A DNA stretch of 64,000 nucleotides, from the NCBI GenBank assembly GCA_964016885.1, contig CAXHJY010000359.1, forward strand, positions 1-64,000. The letters run 5' to 3'. The translations under genes were made by a program, and so were the position numbers. Shown here piece after piece: positions 1,240 through 64,000 of the stretch. The notes under the pieces are model-generated. The model had not been told where the DNA came from, did no database searches, and saw nothing but the letters and a program-made list of their open reading frames with translations. The DNA is from Eledone cirrhosa. Taxonomy: Eukaryota. Numbering within the stretch: the first letter of the stretch is position 1; each line of letters starts with the position of its first letter.

Positions 1240-1370
1240 ATTTTATATATTATATATATATATATTATATATATATATTATATATATATTATATATAGAT
1301 ATTATATATATATATATATTATATATATATTATATATTATATATATATTATATATATATATTATATATAT

Positions 1371-1404
<34 letters not shown>

Positions 1405-1429
1405 ATATATATTATATATATATTATATA

Positions 1430-1480
<51 letters not shown>

Positions 1481-1546
1481 ATATATATATATTATATATT
1501 ATATATATATATATTATATATATTTATATATATTATATATATATAT

Positions 1547-1579
<33 letters not shown>

Positions 1580-2420
1580 ATATATTATATATATATATTA
1601 TATTATATTATATATATATTATATATATATATATTATATATTATATATTATATATATTATATATATATATATTATATATATTATATATATTATATATATA
1701 TATATAATTATATTATATATATATATATATTATATATATTATATATATTATATATATATAATATATTTATATATATATATATATTATATATATATATTAT
1801 ATATATTATATATATATTATATATATATATATTATATATATATATATTATATATATATATATATTATATATATATTATATATTATATATATATATATATT
1901 ATATATATATATATATTATATATATATATATTATATATATATATATATTATATATATATATATATTATATATATATATATTATATATATATATATATTAT
2001 ATATATATATATTATATATATATATATATTATATATATATATATATTATATATATATATATATATAATATATATATATATATTATATATATATATATATA
2101 ATATATATATATATATTATATATATATATATATAATATATATATATATATTATATATATATTATATATAGATATATTATATATATATATATATAATATAT
2201 ATATATTATATATATATATATTATATATATATATTATATATATATATATTATATATATATATATTATATATAGATATATTATATTATATATATTATATAT
2301 ATATATATTATATATATATATATTATATATAGATATATTATATTATATATAGATATATTATATTATATATATATATATTTATATATATATATATTTATAT
2401 ATATAATATTTATATATATT

Positions 2421-2456
<36 letters not shown>

Positions 2457-2728
2457 ATATATATATAATATATATATATAATATATATATATTATATATA
2501 TATATTATATATATATATATATTATATATATATATTATATATATATATTATATATATATATTATATATATATATTATATATATTATATATATATATTATA
2601 TATATATTATATATATATATATTATATATATATATATATTATATATATATATTATATATATATTATATATATATATATTATATATATTATATATTATATA
2701 TATTATATATATTATATATTATATATAT

Positions 2729-2762
<34 letters not shown>

Positions 2763-3330
2763 ATATTATATATATATATATATATATTATATATTATATA
2801 TTATATATATTATATATATTATATATATTATATATATATATATATTATATATATATATATTATATATATATATATTATATATTATATATATTATATATAT
2901 ATATATATTATATATATATATATTATATATATATATATTATATATTATATATATTATATATATTATATATATATATATATTATATATATTATATATATAT
3001 ATATATTATATATATATATATTATATATATATATATTATATATATATATATTATATATTATATATATTATATATATATATTATATATATATATATTATAT
3101 ATATATATATTATATATATATATATATTATATATATTATATATATATTATATATATTATATATATTATATATATATATATATTATATATATTATATATAT
3201 TATATATATTATATATATTATATTATATATATTATATATATATATATTATATATATATATTATATATATATATATTATATATATATATATTATATATATA
3301 TATATTATATATATTATATATATATATATT

Positions 3331-3364
<34 letters not shown>

Positions 3365-3406
3365 ATATTATATATATATATATTATATATATATATATTA
3401 TATATA

Positions 3407-3465
<59 letters not shown>

Positions 3466-6400
3466 ATTATATAGTATATATATTATATATATATATTATA
3501 TATATATATATTATATATTATATATATTATATATTATATATATATATATTATATATATATATATTATATATATATATATATATTATATATATATATATTA
3601 TATATTATATATATTATATATATATATTATATATATATATTATATATATATATATTATATATATATATTATATATATATATTATATATATATATTATATA
3701 TATATATTATATATATATATATTATATATATATATATTATATATATATTATATATATATATATTATATATATATATATTATATATATATATATTATATAT
3801 ATATATATTATATATATATATATTATATATATATATATTATATATATATATATTATATATATATATATTATATTAATATATATATATATTATATTATTAT
3901 ATATATATATTATATATATATATTATATTATTATATATTATATATATATATTATATTATATATTATATATATATATTATATTATTATATATTATATATAT
4001 ATATTATATTATTATATATTATATATATATATTATATTATTATATATTATATATATATATTATATTATTATATATTATATATATATATTATATTATTATA
4101 TATTATATATATATATTATATATATATATAATATATAATAATATATTATATTATTATATATTATATATATATATTATATATATATATTATATTATTATAT
4201 ATTATATTATTATATATTATATATATATATTATATATATATATATTATATATATATATTATATTATTATATATTATATATATATTATTATATATATATAT
4301 ATTATATATATATTATATTATTATATATTATATATATATATTATATTATATATTATATATATATATTATATTATATATTATATATATATATTATATTATT
4401 ATATATTATATATATATATTATATTATTATATATTATATATATATATTATATTATTATATATTATATATATATATTATATTATTATGTTATATATATATA
4501 TTATATTATATATTATATATATATTATATTATTATATATTATATATATATTATATTATTATATATTATATATATATATTATATTATTATATATTATATAT
4601 ATATATTATATTATTATATATTATATATATATATTATATTATTATATATTATATATATATATTATATATATTATATATATATATTATATTATATATTATA
4701 TATATATATTATATTATTATATATTATATATATATATTATATATATTATATATATATATTATATTATATATTATATATATATATTATATTATTATATATT
4801 ATATATATATATTATATTATATATTATATATATATATTATATTATATATTATATATATATATTATATTATTATATATTATATATATATATTATATTATAT
4901 ATTATATATATATATTATATTATTATATATTATATATATATATTATATTATTATATATTATATATATATATTATATTATTATATATTATATATATATATT
5001 ATATTATTATATATTATATATATATATTATATTATTATATATTATATATATATTATATTATATATTATATATATTTATTATATTATTATATATTATATAT
5101 ATTTATTATATTATTATATATTATATATATATATTATATTATTATATATTATATATATATATTATATTATTATATATTATATATATATATTATATTATTA
5201 TATATTATATATATATATTATATTATTATATATTATATATATATATTATATTATTATATATTATATATATATATTATATTATTATATATTATATATATAT
5301 TATATTATATATATATATTATATTATTATATATTATATATATATATTATATTATTATATATTATATATATATATTATATATATATATTATATTATTATAT
5401 ATTATATATATATATTATATTATATATTATATATATATATTATATTATATTATATATATATATTATATATATATATTATATTATATATATTATATATATA
5501 TATTATATTATTATATATTATATTATTATATATTATATATATATATTATATTATTATATATTATATATATATATTATATTATATATTTATATATATATTA
5601 TATTATATATTATATATATATATTATATTATTATATATTATATATATATATTATATTATTATATATTATATATATTATATTATTATATATTATATATATT
5701 TATTATATTATTATATATATATATATTATATTATTATATATTATATATATATTATATTATTATATATTATATATATTATATTATTATATATTATATATAT
5801 TATATTATTATATATTATATATATTATATTATTATATTATTATATATATATTATATATATATATTATATTATATATATATATATATATTATATTATTATA
5901 TATTATATTATTATATATTATATATATATATTATATTATATATTATATATATATATTATATTATATATTATATATATATATTATATTATTATATATTATA
6001 TATTATATTATTATATATTATATATATATATTATATTATTATATATTATATATATATATTATATTATTATATATTATATATATATATTATATTATATATA
6101 TATATTATATTATATATTATATATATATTATATTATTATATATATATATATTATATATTATATATATTATATATATATATATTATATATATATTATATAT
6201 ATTATATATATTTATATATATTATATATATATATATATATATTATATATATTTATATATATTTATATATATTTATATATATTTATATATATATTATATAT
6301 ATTTATATATATATTATATATATTTATATATATATTATATATATTATTTATATATATTATTTATATATATTATTTATATATATTATTTATATATATTATT

Positions 6401-9400
6401 TATATATATTATTTATATATTATTTATTATATATTATTTATATATATTATTTATATATATTATTTATATATATTATTTATATATATTATTTATATATATA
6501 TTATTTATATATATTTATATATATATTTATATATATATTATTTATATATATTTATATATATTATTTATATATATATTATTTATATATATTATTTATATAT
6601 ATTATTTATATATATATTATTTATATATATTATTTATATATATTATTTATATATATATTATTTATATATATTATTTATATATATATTATTTATATATATT
6701 ATTTTTATATATATTTGTATATATATTATTTTTATATATATTTATATATATATTTTTTATATATATTATTTATATATATATTATTTTTATATATATTATT
6801 TATATATATATTATTTATATATATTATTTATATATATTATTTATATATATATTATTTATATATATATTATTTATATATATATTATTTATATATATATTAT
6901 TTATATATATATTATTTATATATATATTATTTATATATATATTATTTATATATATATTATTTATATATATATTATTTATATTATTATTTATATATATTAT
7001 TTATATATATATTATTTATATATATATTATTTATATATATATTATTTATATATATATTATTTATATATATTTATATATATATATTTATATATATATTATT
7101 TATATATATTTATATATATTATTTTATATATATTATTATATATATATTATTTATATATATTATTTATATATATATTTATATATATTTATATATATTATTT
7201 ATATATATTATTTATATATATTATTTATATATATTATTTATATATATTATTTATATATATTATTTATATATATTATTTATATATATTATTTATATATATT
7301 ATTTTATATATATTATTTATATATATTATTTATATATATTTATATATATATTTATATATATATTTTTTATATATATTATTTATATATATATTATTTTTAT
7401 ATATATTATTTATATATATATTATTTATATATATATTTATATATATATTATTTATATATATTATTTATATATATATTATTTATATATATATTATTTATAT
7501 ATATTATTTATATATATATTATTTATATATATATTATTTATATATATATTATTTATATATATATTATTTATATATATATTATTTATATATATATTATTTA
7601 TATATATATTATTATATATATATTATTTATATATATATTATTTATATATATATTATTTATATATATATTATTTATATATATATTATTTATATATATATTA
7701 TTTATATATATATTATTTATATATATATTATTTATATATATATTATTTATATATATATTATTTATATATATATTATTTATATATATATTATTTATATATA
7801 TATTATTATATATATATTATTATATATATATTATTTATATATATATTATGTATATATATATTATGTATATATATATTATTTATATATATATTATGTTATA
7901 TATATATTATTTATATATATATTATGTATATATATATATTATGTATATATATATATTATGTTATATATATATTATGTATATATATATATTATGTATATAT
8001 ATATTATGTATATATATATATTATGTATATATATATATTATGTATATATATATATTATGTATATATATATATTATGTATATATATATATTATGTATATAT
8101 ATATATTATGTATATATATATTTATGTATATATATATATTATGTATATATATATATTATGTATATATATATTATGTATATTATATATTATGTATATATAT
8201 ATATTATGTATATATATATATTATGTATATATATATATTATGTATATATATATATTATGTATATATATATATTATGTATATATATATATTATTATATATA
8301 TTATATTATGTATATATATATATTATGTATATATATATATTATGTATATATATATATTATGTATATATATATATTATGTATATATATATATTATGTATAT
8401 ATATATATTATGTATATATATATTATGTATATATATATTATGTATATATATATATTATGTATATATATATATTATGTTATATATATATTATGTATTATAT
8501 ATATTATGTATATATATATATTATGTATATATATATATTATGTATATATATATATTATGTATATATATATATTATGTATATATATATATTGTGTATATAT
8601 ATATATTATGTATATATATATATTGTTTATATATATATTGTGTATATATATATATTGTATATATATATATTGTGTATATATATATATTGTGTATATATAT
8701 ATATTGTGTATATATATATATTGTGTATATATATATATTGTGTATATATATATATTGTGTATATATATATATTGTGTATATATATATATTGTGTATATAT
8801 ATATATTGTGTATATATATATATTGTGTATATATATATATTGTGTATATATATATATTGTGTATATATATACACAATATATATATACACAATATATATAT
8901 TACACAATATATATATATTGTGTATATATATATTGTGTATATATATATATTGTGTATATATATATATTGTGTATATATATATATTGTGTATATATATATA
9001 TTGTGTATATATATATATTGTGTATATATATATATTATGTATATATATATATTATGTATATATATATATTATGTATATATATATATTATGTATATATATA
9101 TATTATGTATATATATATATTATGTATATATATATATTATGTATATATATATATTATGTATATATATATATTATGTATATATATATATTATGTATATATA
9201 TATATTATGTATATATATATATTATGTATATATATATATTATGTATATATATATATTATGTATATATATATATTATGTATATATATATATTATGTATATA
9301 TATATATTATGTATATATATATATTATGTATATATATATATTATGTATATATATATATTATGTATATATATATATTATGTATATTATATATTATGTATAT

Positions 9401-12145
9401 ATATATATTATGTATATATATATATTATGTATATATATATATTATGTATATATATATATTATGTATATATATATATTATGTATATATATATATATGTATA
9501 TATATATATTATGTATATTATATATTATGTATATATATATTATGTATATATATATATATTATGTATATATATATATATTATGTATATATATATATTATGT
9601 ATATATATATATTATGTATATATATATATTATGTATATATATATATTATGTATATATATATATTATGTATATATATATATTATGTATATATATATATTAT
9701 GTATATATATATATTATGTATATATATATTATGTATATATATATTATGTATATATATATTATGTATATATATATATGTATATATATATATGTATATATAT
9801 ATGTATATATATATGTATATATATAGTTAATATATGTATATATATATGTATATATATATGTATATATATATGTATATAAATATGTATATAAATATGTATA
9901 TAAATATGTATATAAATATGTATATAAATATGTATATAAATATGTATATAAATATGTATATAAATATGTATATAAATATGTATATAATATGTATATTAAT
10001 ATGTATTAATATGTATATAATATGTATATAATATGTATATAATTATGTATATAATATGTATATAATATGTTATATAATATGTATATAATATGTATATAAT
10101 ATGTATATAATATTATATATTATATTATTATATATTATATTATTATATATTATATTATTATATATTATATATATATTATATATATATTATTATATATATA
10201 TATTATATTATATTATATATATATTATATTATATATATATTATATTATATATATTATATTATATATTATATTTATATTATATATATTATATTATATATAT
10301 ATTATATTATATATATTATATTATATATATATATATTATATTATATTATATATATATTATATTATATATATTATATATATTATTTATATTATATTATATA
10401 TATATTATATTATAATATATATTATATTATATATATATATATATTATAATTTTATATATTTATTTTATATATATATTATTATATTATATATTATTATATA
10501 TATATTATTATATTATATATTATTATATTATATATTATTATATTATATATTATTATATATTATATTATTATATATTATATTATTATATATTATATTATTA
10601 TATATTATATTATTATATATTATATTATTATATATTATATTATTATATATTATATTATTATATTATTATATATTATATTATTATATATTATATTATTATA
10701 TATTATATTATTATATATTATATTATTATATATTATATTATTATATATTATATTATTATATATATATATTATATATTATATTATTATATATTATATTATT
10801 ATATTATATATATATTATTATATATATATTATATTATATATATATTATATTATTATATATTATATATATATTATATTATTATATATTATATATATATTAT
10901 ATTATTATATATTATATATATATTATATTATTATATATTATATATATATTATATTATTATATATTATATATATATTATATTATTATATATTATATATATA
11001 TTATATTATTATATATTATATATATATTATATTATTATATATTATATATATATTATATTATTATATATTATATATATATTATAATATTATATATTATATA
11101 TATATATTATATTATATATTATATATATGATTATATTATATATTATATATATGTATTATATTATATATTATATATATGTATTATATTATATATTATATAT
11201 ATGTATTATATTATATATTATATATATGTATTATATTATATATTATATATATATATTATATATTATATATATATATTATATTATTATTATATTATTATAT
11301 ATTATATATATATATTATTATATATTATTATATATTATTATATATATATTATTATATATTATTATATATTATTATATTATTATATATTATATATATATAT
11401 TATTATATATTATTATATTATTATATATTATATATATATATTATTATATATTATTATATTATTATATATTATATATATATATTATTATATATTATTATAT
11501 TATTATATATTATATATATATATTATTATATATTATTATATTATTATATATTATATATATATATTATTATATATTATTATATTATTATATATTATATATA
11601 TATATTATTATATATTATTATATTATTATATTATATATATATATATTATTATATATTATTATATTATTATATATTATATATATATATTATTATATATTAT
11701 TATATTATTATATATTATATATATATTATTATATATTATTATATTATTATATTATATATATATATTATTATATATTATTATATTATTATATATTATATAT
11801 ATATATTATTATATATTATTATATTATTATATATTATATATATATATTATTATATATTATTATATTATTATATATTATATATATATATTATTATATATTA
11901 TTATATTATTATATATTATATATATATATTATTATATATTATTATATTATTATATATTATATATATATATTATTATATATTATTATATTATTATATATTA
12001 TATATATATATTATTATATATTATTATATTATTATATATTATATATATATATTATTATATATTATTATATTATTATATATTATATATATATATTATTATA
12101 TATTATTATATTATTATATATTATATATATATTATATTATTATAG
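1240..12145. repeat. Giant (TA)n-derived compound microsatellite array of about 11 kb with successive sub-domains
   Basis: Almost pure A/T. Units shift from (TA)nT to TATTATTTATA (about 6.2-7.8 kb), TATTATG(TA)n (about 7.85-9.8 kb), TATTGTG(TA)n (about 8.6-9.0 kb), TATATAAATATG (about 9.87-9.98 kb) and TATTATTATA (10-12.1 kb). Confidence 0.98.
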
Positions 12146-13004
12146 AGATTATATATATCGGGTTGCTGACCAATAACTTCTCAATGTAAAGGCGCTAACA
12201 TTTTCGAACAGAGGCAACTCACAAGATATTATTGATACAATTTAGATATTTTGTACTAAAAATAAAATATGATCAATTAGAGCAATGAAACGTTACTTGT
12301 GTGTGTATGTATGCACACGCACGCACGTGTGTGTCCCATTGTCATGGCTAAATTGACTGGTAGTAATTCGTTACTTTGACCTGCACCAATATATTTCATA
12401 GCTGTATGAGTTTTCTAGTATTTTTGCAAGCTTAATTCTATTCGGGTTAAAAATATCAATCTACCGAGGTTAGTTAAAAATTCAACAGAACCTCCTAGCT
12501 CCTTTACGGCTTCCCTTGCTTCACATTTATCTTATGCTTAGTTTGCCAATTTCATTAAAAAAAAAATGTATTATATTCACTTCTGTTTTGTTTTTCTCGA
12601 CTGTAAGAAGTCTTAGATACTCCTCTAGCTAGCTCTATAAGGACGTTTGAATGGATTAAATACTAGAAATTTAAAGATCTTCTTCGGCTAATTTCAAAGT
12701 GTGTACAATCCCTCAACCAACTCTTTATGATAAATGCATGCTCTCTTCTCACCAAATTTTAAATTATCTAGAAATCATTTTTCTATTTGTAGCAATCCAA
12801 GGAAATGGTTAATTTGACTGAAATCCCGCAGCACAAGTTGGCCAGATAAAAAAGAAGAAAAAAAATGGAAGCTCATGAAACGTGGAATCATAATTTTCGA
12901 AATAGAATGGAATATAGAATTGACTTGAAACACTGCTTCAAAGGGCGTCTGGACTGGAGATATGGCACATTAATTTTACCTGTATCTAGGCTAACTGCTC
13001 TGGG

Positions 13005-16327: not shown

Positions 16328-17239
16328 TACGAGGTGTCAAAAGTTCCAGGACTGATGTCACAAAAGATTTATTTCAAACCTAAACTTCACACTAAGAGGT
16401 TTTTCCTTCAAAGTAATCCCCCTGGATCTGGAGTCTAATGCACTTTTCCATCCTTTTCTGCCACGTTTGCATGCACTCCTGGAAGGATTCTTCCGGGATC
16501 CTCCGCAGTTCCGTCGTCACGGCCTTTTTGATGTCGTCTGCATCTTCAAAACGGGTCCCCTCCGGGTCGTACTCGAAGATCCATGACTCATCACCGGTGA
16601 TGACTGTCCCTAGCAAGTCTGGTTCGGTTTCAAGACGCTCGAGGATGTCCTGGCACACTTGCATGCGTCGACCCTTCTGGTCATCGTTCAGCAGTTCTGG
16701 CACCATCTTCGCGCAGACTTTTCGCATGTCCAAATCTTCAGTGAGAATCTTCCAGACGCTGTCTCGATTCATGCCCAGCTCATTTACCATCAGTCGAACA
16801 GTCAGCCGACGATCGCTACGCACCATCTGCCTGACGCGCTCAACGTTGACCTCAGTGCTGGTTGTTGAGGACCTTCCGCTCCAGGGGTCATCTTCCACGT
16901 CCTCGCGTCCTTCTTTAAACCTCTTGTACCACTCAAAAACACGTGAGCGTGACATCGTCTCATCTCCAGACACTTGCTGCAGCGGAGTTTTCCCCAACCG
17001 TACCAGAAACTTCAAGTTTGTTCGTTGCTCTGTGCTCATTGCTTGACGACCTGAAACAGATGTATATAAAATTATGAAGAAAAAAGTTTGATCGCTGCAG
17101 AGAGCTAAGATAAGTTACATGTTACATACTCCAGGGGGGGGGGGGGGTACTTTGAAGGAGAAAACTCTTAGTGTGAAGTTTGGGTTTGAAATAAATCTTT
17201 TGTGACATCAGTCCTGGAACTTTTCTGACACACCTCGTA
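16328..17239 (-). mobile_element. Mariner (Tc1/mariner) DNA transposon, internally deleted, with about 90-bp terminal inverted repeats and TA flanks
   Basis: Ends TATACGAGGTG... and ...CACCTCGTATA. The inverted repeat continues through GATGTCACAAAAGATTTATTTCAAACC..ACTAAGAG.. to about 16422 and 17145. Contains a transposase ORF. Confidence 0.95.
16392..17039 (-). CDS. Truncated mariner transposase (215 aa): HTH DNA-binding region kept, catalytic core deleted
   Basis: MSTEQRTNLKFLVRLGKT..VFEWYKRFKEGREDVEDD..DRRLTVR..KVCAKMVPELL..ITGDESWIFEYDPE joined in frame to GTRFEDADDIKKAV..WQKRMEKCI..GDYFEG. The HDNA and YSPDLAP.D motifs are missing. Confidence 0.85.
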   Translation of the reverse strand: MSTEQRTNLKFLVRLGKTPLQQVSGDETMSRSRVFEWYKRFKEGREDVEDDPWSGRSSTTSTEVNVERVRQMVRSDRRLTVRLMVNELGMNRDSVWKILTEDLDMRKVCAKMVPELLNDDQKGRRMQVCQDILERLETEPDLLGTVITGDESWIFEYDPEGTRFEDADDIKKAVTTELRRIPEESFQECMQTWQKRMEKCIRLQIQGDYFEGKTS

Positions 17240-55145: not shown

Positions 55146-55239
55146 GTGAGTGTGTATATATACATGCATGTATGCATATATATTTGTAGTAAGGTTGCTT
55201 GGATGCGTCCATGGGCGGTATGCCTGATTATTTGTTTTA

Positions 55240-55281
<42 letters not shown>

Positions 55282-55285
<4 letters not shown>

Positions 55286-55360
55286 AATATAGAAGAGATT
55301 CTACAGGACTAGAACTGTTTCATTCGTGAGAAATCATCAGTAATCTCTTCTATATTAAAA
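55282..55360 (-). ncRNA. Type I hammerhead ribozyme candidate (copy 1 of tandem pair)
   Basis: Minus strand: ttttaatatagaagagatta-CTGATGA-tttctcacgaat-GAAA-cag-ttctagtc-ctg-TA^-gaatctcttctatattaaaa. 19-bp stem I with an A:G mismatch next to the core; GTA cleavage triplet (cut 55302/55301). Confidence 0.75.
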
Positions 55361-55539
55361 CTTTTATACTCTATGTATTGAGTATTGGAATAACATACTA
55401 TATATATATATATTATATATATATAATATATATATATATATAGTAAGTTATTTATTATATATATATAGTAAGTTGAATCGGAGGTAACCACAGTAAGTAA
55501 GGTACTCAATACATAGAGTATAAGTTTTAAATATAGATG

Positions 55540-55590
55540 AGATTCTACAGGACTAGAACTATTTCATTCTTGAGAAATCATCAGGAATCT
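55540..55590 (-). ncRNA. Type I hammerhead ribozyme candidate (copy 2 of tandem pair)
   Basis: Minus strand: agattc-CTGATGA-tttctcaagaat-GAAA-tag-ttctagtc-ctg-TA^-gaatct. Perfect 6-bp stem I; cut 55546/55545. Confidence 0.8.
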
Positions 55591-55739
55591 GACTGTCCAA
55601 ATAAATGTGGTGGTATTTATATCTTTTCTTTCAATCAATGACCTTCACTCATCCCACTCCACACCCTCTCCTACCACCAGAAAAGATATACCACCAGATA
55701 TAATACCAGCATCTATATTAAAACTTATATATAGGAGAG

Positions 55740-55986
55740 AGAGTGACAATAAGTCAGATTTGCAGCTTTTTATGAAACTTTATTGCATCTTACAATTGTT
55801 TTGATATCGATTAGCTTGGGTTTGATCAGGCGACCGGATCCCGTCTCTTAATCTACACTTCTTCGTGTAGATTAAGAGTCGGGATCCGACCACCTGATCA
55901 ACCCAAGCTGATCGATATCAAAACAATTGTAATATACAATAAAGTTTCATAAAAAGCTGCAAATTTAACTTCTCATTGTAACTCTA
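55740..55986. repeat. Long imperfect palindrome (arms about 120 bp, spacer TTCTTC at 55859-55864)
   Basis: ..TTTGCAGCTTTTTATGAAACTTTATTG..CTCTTAATCTACAC | GTGTAGATTAAGAG..CAATAAAGTTTCATAAAAAGCTGCAAA. Confidence 0.95.
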
Positions 55987-56634: not shown

Positions 56635-57127
56635 GTACGTCCTTATCAGATAAAATAAGATGATGCATGACATACCCTGACATAGTCGATGGTTAAGATC
56701 CAGTCCTGGTAGTAAGATGACACCAGTCCTGGTAGTGAGTAAGATATGACAACTCAATATTTATATACCTTAAGATTGATACATGAAAAAACCTACATAT
56801 AATACAGAGGGTGCGTGTAAGAAAGCTTAAAAATACATAACAGTAATTTACATAACTGTTAAAGATTCAAATAATTATTGAAGAAAAAGGAAAGTCTTTT
56901 TTCTTTCCTTTTTCTTCAATAATTATTTGAATCTTTAACAGTTATGTAAATTACTGTTATGTATTTTTAAGCTTTCTTACACGCACCCTCTGTATTATAT
57001 GTAGGTTTTTTCATGTATCAATCTTAAGGTATATAAATATTGAGTTGTCATATCTTACTCACTACCAGGACTGGATCTTAACCATCGACTGTCGTGCATC
57101 ATCTTATTTTATCTGATGAGGACGTAC
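56635..57127. repeat. Long near-perfect palindrome (arms 56635-56894 and 56903-57127, 8-nt spacer)
   Basis: The inner 170 bp or so are reverse-complement identical by eye. The left arm carries small extra internal duplications (CCAGTCCTGGTAGT twice, TGACATA twice). Confidence 0.97.
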
Positions 57128-57171
57128 TGTTGATGTTAGCTCAGTACCTCTGAAATATGTATAATAAAATA
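57105..57171 (+). ncRNA. Type I hammerhead ribozyme candidate with minimal stem III (Penelope-type)
   Basis: tattttat-CTGATGA-ggacgtactg-ttgatgttagct-cagtacctct-GAAA-tatgta-TA^-ataaaata. 8-bp stem I, 10-bp stem II with one mismatch, near-palindromic stem III, ATA triplet (cut 57163/57164). Confidence 0.85.
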
Positions 57172-57458
57172 TACTTGATCACAATGAAGTACTATTTTGT
57201 TAATATTTTGAATGAATGTTAATAACTCCGGAAACCAAATCTGTTGAGTGCTGCCAATCTATTGTAAAACTAATTCTTTGATTTATTCATTAACCTTGTT
57301 TAACCTTTGTGTGTGTGAATAAGGGTTGACGGACCCAGCATATTTATCAATGCCAGTACCGGTTGTATCTCGGCGCACTCAATGGGCAATGTAAGATACA
57401 TTACCAGAGTATACAGTTATTTTCCTCAACACAACACACGTAAAACGGGTGCCTATAA

Positions 57459-57949: not shown

Positions 57950-64000
<6,051 letters not shown>

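Follow-up and report, generated by a model that had tools for sequence, protein, structure and literature searches.

The 64,000-nt stretch of Eledone cirrhosa DNA analysed here (the window) carries on its minus strand two hammerhead ribozyme motifs in the same orientation, which raises the question of whether they delimit a mobile RNA or are remains of something else. Both were recovered where the preliminary description had placed them: the CTGATGA...GAAA cores start at 55584 and 55340, GTA follows each of them, and the predicted cut sites (Table 1) are the same and lie 244 nt apart. That description proposed a non-LTR retrozyme, i.e. a 244-nt monomer that would be cut out by both hammerheads, circularised and mobilised by the RT of a Penelope-like element (PLE). 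Non-LTR retrozymes are presented as tandem, many-copy monomers that yield circular RNA, with a proposed origin from the terminal repeats (pLTRs) of PLEs, in the consulted part of a recent survey (10.64898/2026.07.22.740005). Our analysis makes this proposal highly improbable for the window. Very probably, the two hammerheads are pLTR fragments of a Hydra-clade PLE, likely brought by two insertions that hit the same TA microsatellite; the 244-nt rod would be made up of their facing tails.

On sequence grounds, both motifs are real type I hammerheads for which self-cleavage is predicted. Each has the CUGANGA and GAAA segments of the core and an NUH cut triplet. The match to an Rfam hammerhead model that had been suggested as a check was not obtained: the scans gave no hammerhead family at E<=1 or E<=10 and returned only sub-gathering look-alikes of hairpin type (miRNA, snoRNA). 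Hence, the hammerhead call rests on the core consensus, on conservation within the family and on covariation in stem I. The repeat family to which the motif belongs has thousands of copies, which excludes a chance occurrence; reversed-pattern controls gave 0 matches. From 368 motif matches in the examined loci outside the satellite described below, 93 distinct copies passed a native-upstream filter, which let through a few non-native flanks, and were aligned. Core positions are conserved in 86-92 of these 93 copies and loop 2 varies. The G10.1-C11.1 pair closing stem II is absent, 88/93 copies having U:U instead. The U:U that had been regarded as a weak point of the window copies is present as described, is family-wide and has a precedent in a cleaving axolotl hammerhead. 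The other weak point, an A:G mismatch in the 55296-55346 copy (hammerhead 2), lies at the core end of stem I exactly as described and is a rare variant.

Across 32 chosen hammerhead copies, 93.8% of cells pair and all three helices are supported by variation. Two stem I pairs are changed on both sides (AU to GC and AU to CG) and stems II and III show no double changes; the 32 copies are related sequences, so these pair changes are not independent events. Both window hammerheads, like one young copy, are predicted to pair little in the active fold; in the window copies, stems II and III reach at most 0.18, and the value for stem I of hammerhead 1 drops to 0.02 in context. PLE hammerheads are generally weak according to the consulted part of PMC4209133. 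The axolotl HHR_Amex2, which has the same U:U at the base of stem II, is reported to cleave 22% in 1 h and to perform better as a dimer (PMC7229834, in part).

Several features of the 244-nt unit do recall a retrozyme. As previously noticed, 55342-55385 forms an inverted repeat with 55503-55544 (the alignment has 40 matches, 1 mismatch, 3 internal gap positions), and part of this arm, first located at about 55709-55730, was found again at 55710-55731. The rod expected for the excised unit was also reproduced in silico: once circularised, the unit is predicted to fold at -67.5 kcal/mol, because of the inverted arm and of the self-pairing TA tract. Two co-oriented intact cores 244 nt apart fall inside the 170-400-nt range given for metazoan retrozymes (PMC7229834, in part), both cuts could in principle occur in one read-through transcript, and the pLTR origin proposed for retrozymes would agree with such a reading. 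Metazoan non-LTR retrozymes, as far as the consulted parts of two reports describe them (Cervera and de la Pena 2020, PMC7229834; Li et al. 2026), share with this locus type I hammerheads, a co-oriented pair a few hundred nt apart, low GC, a predicted self-paired circle and the U:U of HHR_Amex2. However, they are many-copy tandem monomers giving circular RNA, whereas the 244-nt unit is single-copy among the loci examined and is not part of any monomer repeat. The repetition in the window is limited to the 72-nt hammerhead, whose two copies are 89% identical; TRF detected no 244-nt period, and TA tracts only at 55238-55280 and 55399-55467. The unit is absent from 46/46 other fold-back sites, 12/12 other close pairs, 60/60 sampled loci and the 29/29 best BLAST loci, which are samples and not a full census. 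In a BLAST-type search of the genome, a check of the kind that had been recommended, none of the 29 best other loci had the arrangement of the window. Furthermore, the 5' flank of hammerhead 1 is PLE promoter sequence and not a copy of the end of the unit, and all parts of the unit have their counterpart in the terminal repeat of an autonomous Hydra-clade PLE. The low predicted pairing of the active folds and the A:G beside the core of hammerhead 2 also argue against a monomer released by both ribozymes. With no repeated monomer, no second locus among those examined and all its parts found in a PLE terminal repeat, the 244-nt unit is very probably a composite one-off and no circular-RNA element family. 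The window locus is ordinary transposon debris, and it calls for caution since PLE ends that stack in TA repeats can look like a retrozyme. Three presumed RNA sequencing runs contain 0 family contigs and another run, of RNA or DNA, contains 9,683, none spanning this part of the window; these counts do not bear on expression.

The link with Penelope-like RTs, which had also been proposed, is well founded. Searching the 3.0-Gb genome with a BLAST-type method yielded 3,074 preliminary candidates, and 40 of them were scored; the best 29 other loci match hammerhead 1 together with its tail and (TA)n at 84-89% identity. One locus (L002) carries the start of an RT-like frame, and its peptide used as a query gave 150 scored matches, many of them in 758-codon frames. 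In all 13 regions fetched around ORF matches, the family hammerhead lies directly 5' of the PLE ORF, which has 758 codons in 11 regions and 632 in two. This single ORF encodes an RT followed by a C-terminal GIY-YIG nuclease, with YRDD at 392 and VYKC...KTYIG at 631-649; the other motifs are RWR (83), DKT (161), CxCX5C (611), CxxC (711) and CxH (739). The ORF had no significant match in Pfam or among PDB sequences; at least one of its homologues carries PF01541 (best 120 of 1,408 database homologues, identity up to 54%). The first ATG is 136 nt after the hammerhead cut. A piece of the tail (33 nt) has 7,921 exact sites in the genome.

The Hydra clade is defined by a single ORF with GIY-YIG, DKT, RW(K/R), CxCX5C, CxxC and CxH, by hammerheads and by insertion in (TA)n (Craig et al. 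2021, PMC8557442, in part). The family resembles the PLEs of this clade, such as Hydra-1_Obim and Hydra-2_Amil, by its ORF layout and motifs and by the hammerhead in the pLTR, as well as by (TA)n insertion, inverted truncated copies and one-sided tails. It differs from what the consulted part of the same study gives by RWR, a conservative variant of the RWK of Hydra elements, by its unit length (about 4.7-4.8 kb in two full-length copies, L081 and L090, owing to a long TA/GT-rich 3' region, versus less than 3 kb for most of them) and by its thousands of copies. The motifs and a visual comparison with the published alignment thus point to a Hydra-clade PLE as the host. Since a cephalopod Hydra family listed there, Hydra-1_Obim, has a hammerhead of another sequence, this is a further Hydra family. 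Two 10-11-nt motifs of the family hammerhead and the peptide EEDLF are absent from the consulted part of the supplement of PMC8557442. No earlier description of the family, of its satellite or of the clustering of 5' ends was found in the literature searched, which was mostly open-access and did not include Repbase or Dfam. It is a new family of a known kind of host element. Being young and abundant, with many intact ORFs, this family is more useful than the window locus itself.

Typical copies of the family are head-to-head inserts of 150-300 bp in (TA)n, with one long tail (+90) and one short tail (+14/+21). A sample of 60 loci on contig C1 (L184-L243), drawn from the beginning of the 7,921-site list with a few sites near ORFs or already examined passed over, was mapped on a natural full-length copy. 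Their 3' ends fall at +14/+21 or at +85 to +95 after the cut site. An inverted short-tail partner is found at the 5' end of 39/60 loci, and a co-oriented hammerhead within 400 nt at only one. Half of the arm starts (52 of 104), which are BLAST ends accurate to a few bases, lie at -46 to -36, i.e. in the 5' strand of stem I; 15 lie at -35 to -5, five at -4 to 0, three after the cut and 29 farther upstream. In the window, 192 contigs of a sequencing run, which may be the source sample, end loosely at this same edge (55340). Upstream, among 63 distinct native copies, 56 have a TATA box at a distance of 30-33 nt from stem I and 55 have a CCAAT-like motif. Inverted truncated copies, one-sided tails and (TA)n targeting, all found in this family, are described PLE traits (consulted parts of PMC8557442, PMC11167929 and PMC3846280).

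Table 1. Features of the window assigned to the two hammerheads and to the proposed PLE inserts A and B
Feature	Position	Strand	Details	Basis
Insert A, inverted arm, short tail	55710..55731	+	+6 to about +27 after cut, into TA; direct repeat	91% to full-length copy L081
Insert A, inverted arm, promoter-region fragment	55623..55702	+	CCAAT-like/C-rich box; hammerhead deleted	86% to L081
Insert A, direct arm	55456..55629	-	pLTR truncated in 5', comprising the TATA box, hammerhead 1 and the long tail	87% over 154 columns to L081
TATAAATA box	55614..55621	-	Predicted promoter, 31 nt before stem I	Sequence; 30-33 nt spacing in native copies
Hammerhead 1	55540..55590	-	Type I; 6-bp stem I; stem II of U:U plus 3 bp; 4-bp stem III including U:G	Predicted cut 55546/55545
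(TA)n target microsatellite	55399..55467	.	Between inserts; partly duplicated tail end	TRF; family tails end in (TA)n
Insert B, inverted arm	55342..55398	+	Long tail with internal deletion	Joined to hammerhead 2 via 6-nt stem I microhomology
Hammerhead 2	55296..55346	-	Type I; subfamily with CAC loop and CTT arm	Predicted cut 55302/55301
Insert B, direct arm	55281..55301	-	Short tail ending in (TA)n at 55238-55280	

Both halves of the window locus can be read as inserts of this kind (Table 1). Insert A (55456-55731) would be a head-to-head insert whose inverted arm has suffered a deletion, and the promoter-region fragment of this arm matches the upstream region of the pLTR at 83-93% in many loci. 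The sequence at 55591-55709 was considered as an insertion splitting a long stem I; this was rejected since it consists of the native promoter and of an inverted promoter fragment. Insert B (55281-55398) would be a fold-back variant joined at stem I microhomology. Its exact junction occurs at 47 sites; among the 46 others, all of which were examined, 33 have a long arm and a short tail like insert B, 12 the reverse arrangement and one another structure. In all 46, the 600 nt upstream contain no hammerhead of the same orientation. The two hammerheads look like a tandem because inserts A and B face each other tail to tail, so that both direct arms point the same way. No target-site duplication is readable in the TA repeats. 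Next to insert A, the window also contains a near-perfect 220-nt palindrome (55751-55971), possibly the inverted end of another element.

Close co-oriented pairs are not restricted to the window. A gapped pattern for pairs 185-215 nt apart gave 1,915 matches, and at least 12 of the 100 matches listed are dispersed pairs. These 12 (spacing 234-258 nt) all have different spacers and five join different subfamilies. If 7,921 copies were placed at random, about 0.3 close pairs would be expected, and about 5 with a fourfold number of copies, so that TA targeting probably enriches them.

Alternatively, both halves may have been produced by one complex insertion with repeated template switching, or by a later inverted duplication; the locus would still be PLE debris and not a family. 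A deletion of the same 3 nt affects both long tails of the window. It is found at 206 exact sites versus 7,921 tails, and this shared rare loss, which is the point against two independent insertions, hints at one complex event or at later homogenisation of the facing arms, repair between them being one possibility. Moreover, both halves come from a subfamily group with the same upstream sequence, and insert A has an internal deletion and a duplicated tail end. The deletion variant recurs in several subfamilies (30 of the 206 sites viewed) and was seen in none of the long tails visible among 30 loci of the hammerhead 2 type. On the other side, the linked variants of hammerhead 2 define a separate subfamily of 67 sites (30 viewed), and its upstream arm matches its own tail at 19/19 positions and differs from the tail of hammerhead 1. 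Each half has the set of one long and one short tail of a complete insertion, and composites of different subfamilies are common. We therefore consider a single event improbable and favour two insertions into the same microsatellite.

The inserts suggest how two such insertions would arise. The pLTR would carry the promoter (CCAAT, C-rich box and TATA), from which transcription would start at the first base of hammerhead stem I. By analogy with the chemistry described for the Anolis Poseidon element, the nuclease would nick both strands of the (TA)n target. Two internal positions of the RNA, about +90 and +14/+21 past the cut, would then serve as RT start sites; these are the positions where the tails end in the genome. 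Both cDNAs would run back toward the 5' end of the RNA and join head to head, often via microhomology, and the product would be the 150-300-bp inserts that are observed, in which a long tail is combined with a short one. This scheme, with its RNA start, its two-site priming and its order of events, is an inference. In Anolis Poseidon, the limits of the tail are set by two internal sites of RT initiation, extension takes place on both strands, and the RT mainly uses uncut RNA (Frangieh et al. 2024, PMC11167929, in part). Like Poseidon, this family has AT-rich targets and, probably, an uncleaved main template and two RT start sites, located past the hammerhead, from which the tails derive. Poseidon nevertheless belongs to another clade, its ORF starts inside the hammerhead and not past the cut as here, and its tails differ by 30-40 bp, against about 70 nt in this family (same source). 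Head-to-head palindromes have also been attributed to self-priming on an antisense template (Arkhipova et al., PMC3846280, in part), an explanation that fits the insert data as well as twin priming does. The window copies are likely dead-on-arrival debris.

We examined whether the fold-back junctions are marks of cleavage in vivo, and rejected this idea since the cut site is not enriched over a control position: 21 arms start exactly at the cut site, 16 of them being stem I fold-backs, compared with 16 for a control position located 5 nt upstream and two for a position 4 nt downstream. With 21 versus 16 arms, and only 5/104 sampled arms starting at -4 to 0, microhomology suffices to explain these junctions. 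As the template appears to be mostly uncleaved RNA, the ribozyme is probably weak or protein-assisted. The ends of the inserts map the RT start sites and, probably, the 5' end of the RNA, which bears on the role of PLE hammerheads: a ribozyme at the start of the RNA could remove the cap 45 nt in, yet most inserts would have been copied from uncut RNA.

The family hammerhead also occurs as a tandem repeat elsewhere in the genome. On contig C28, from about 30,496,750 to about 30,873,650, the hammerhead and a short tail form an array with a 78-bp period which, if continuous, comprises about 4,800 units over ~377 kb. All 17 interior probes were positive and those from 30,879,000 on were negative. 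In eight probes of the array, a 51-nt motif is whole in 107 of about 308 units (about 35%). The array starts from an ordinary head-to-head insert, and it can be traced to a parent PLE in the same genome. A matching go-back joint of the 78-bp repeat was seen in sequencing run X22. Another short array of about eight units of the same repeat, devoid of the usual tails, is located on contig C1 (about 350,200,250-350,200,900, L096-L099), which suggests that the satellite unit can move or be copied elsewhere.

Unlike the 244-nt unit of the window, the C28 array fits the tandem definition of a non-LTR retrozyme. A survey of 35 genomes reported retrozyme monomers of 51-972 bp in arrays of at most 300 units (10.64898/2026.07.22.740005); the C28 array, if continuous, has about 16 times as many units as the largest of these, as given in the main text, since supplements could hold larger ones. 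We tentatively propose, as a rather unlikely scenario, that a live Hydra-clade PLE makes an RNA starting with the hammerhead, that the mini inserts record this start and the uncleaved template, and that the hammerhead has seeded a transcribed, self-cut satellite giving short or circular RNAs. If so, close pairs like that of the window would be the raw material for such arrays. At another locus (L101, contig C3, about 39,697,400), a local direct repeat of about 250 nt contains the hammerhead, the tail and the start of the ORF in about 2.5 units; it is closer to a nascent retrozyme monomer than the 244-nt unit is.

The window carries other elements. At 56636-57185, a head-to-head, PLE-like insert of another family contains a long perfect palindrome centred near 56898, a minimal hammerhead (CTGATGA at 57113 on the plus strand, 7-bp stem I, tiny stem III) and an inverted remnant (about 56641-56680); the same motif occurs seven times among the examined loci. 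At 179-744, a frameshifted remnant of a Hydra-type nuclease is 37-47% identical to the family ORF (tblastn E 1e-22) and would belong to another, older Hydra family. The fragment at 16392-17114 (minus strand) presumably derives from a mariner-like transposase, judging from its motifs. Very long TA-rich arrays occupy 1244-12158 and 57999-64000.
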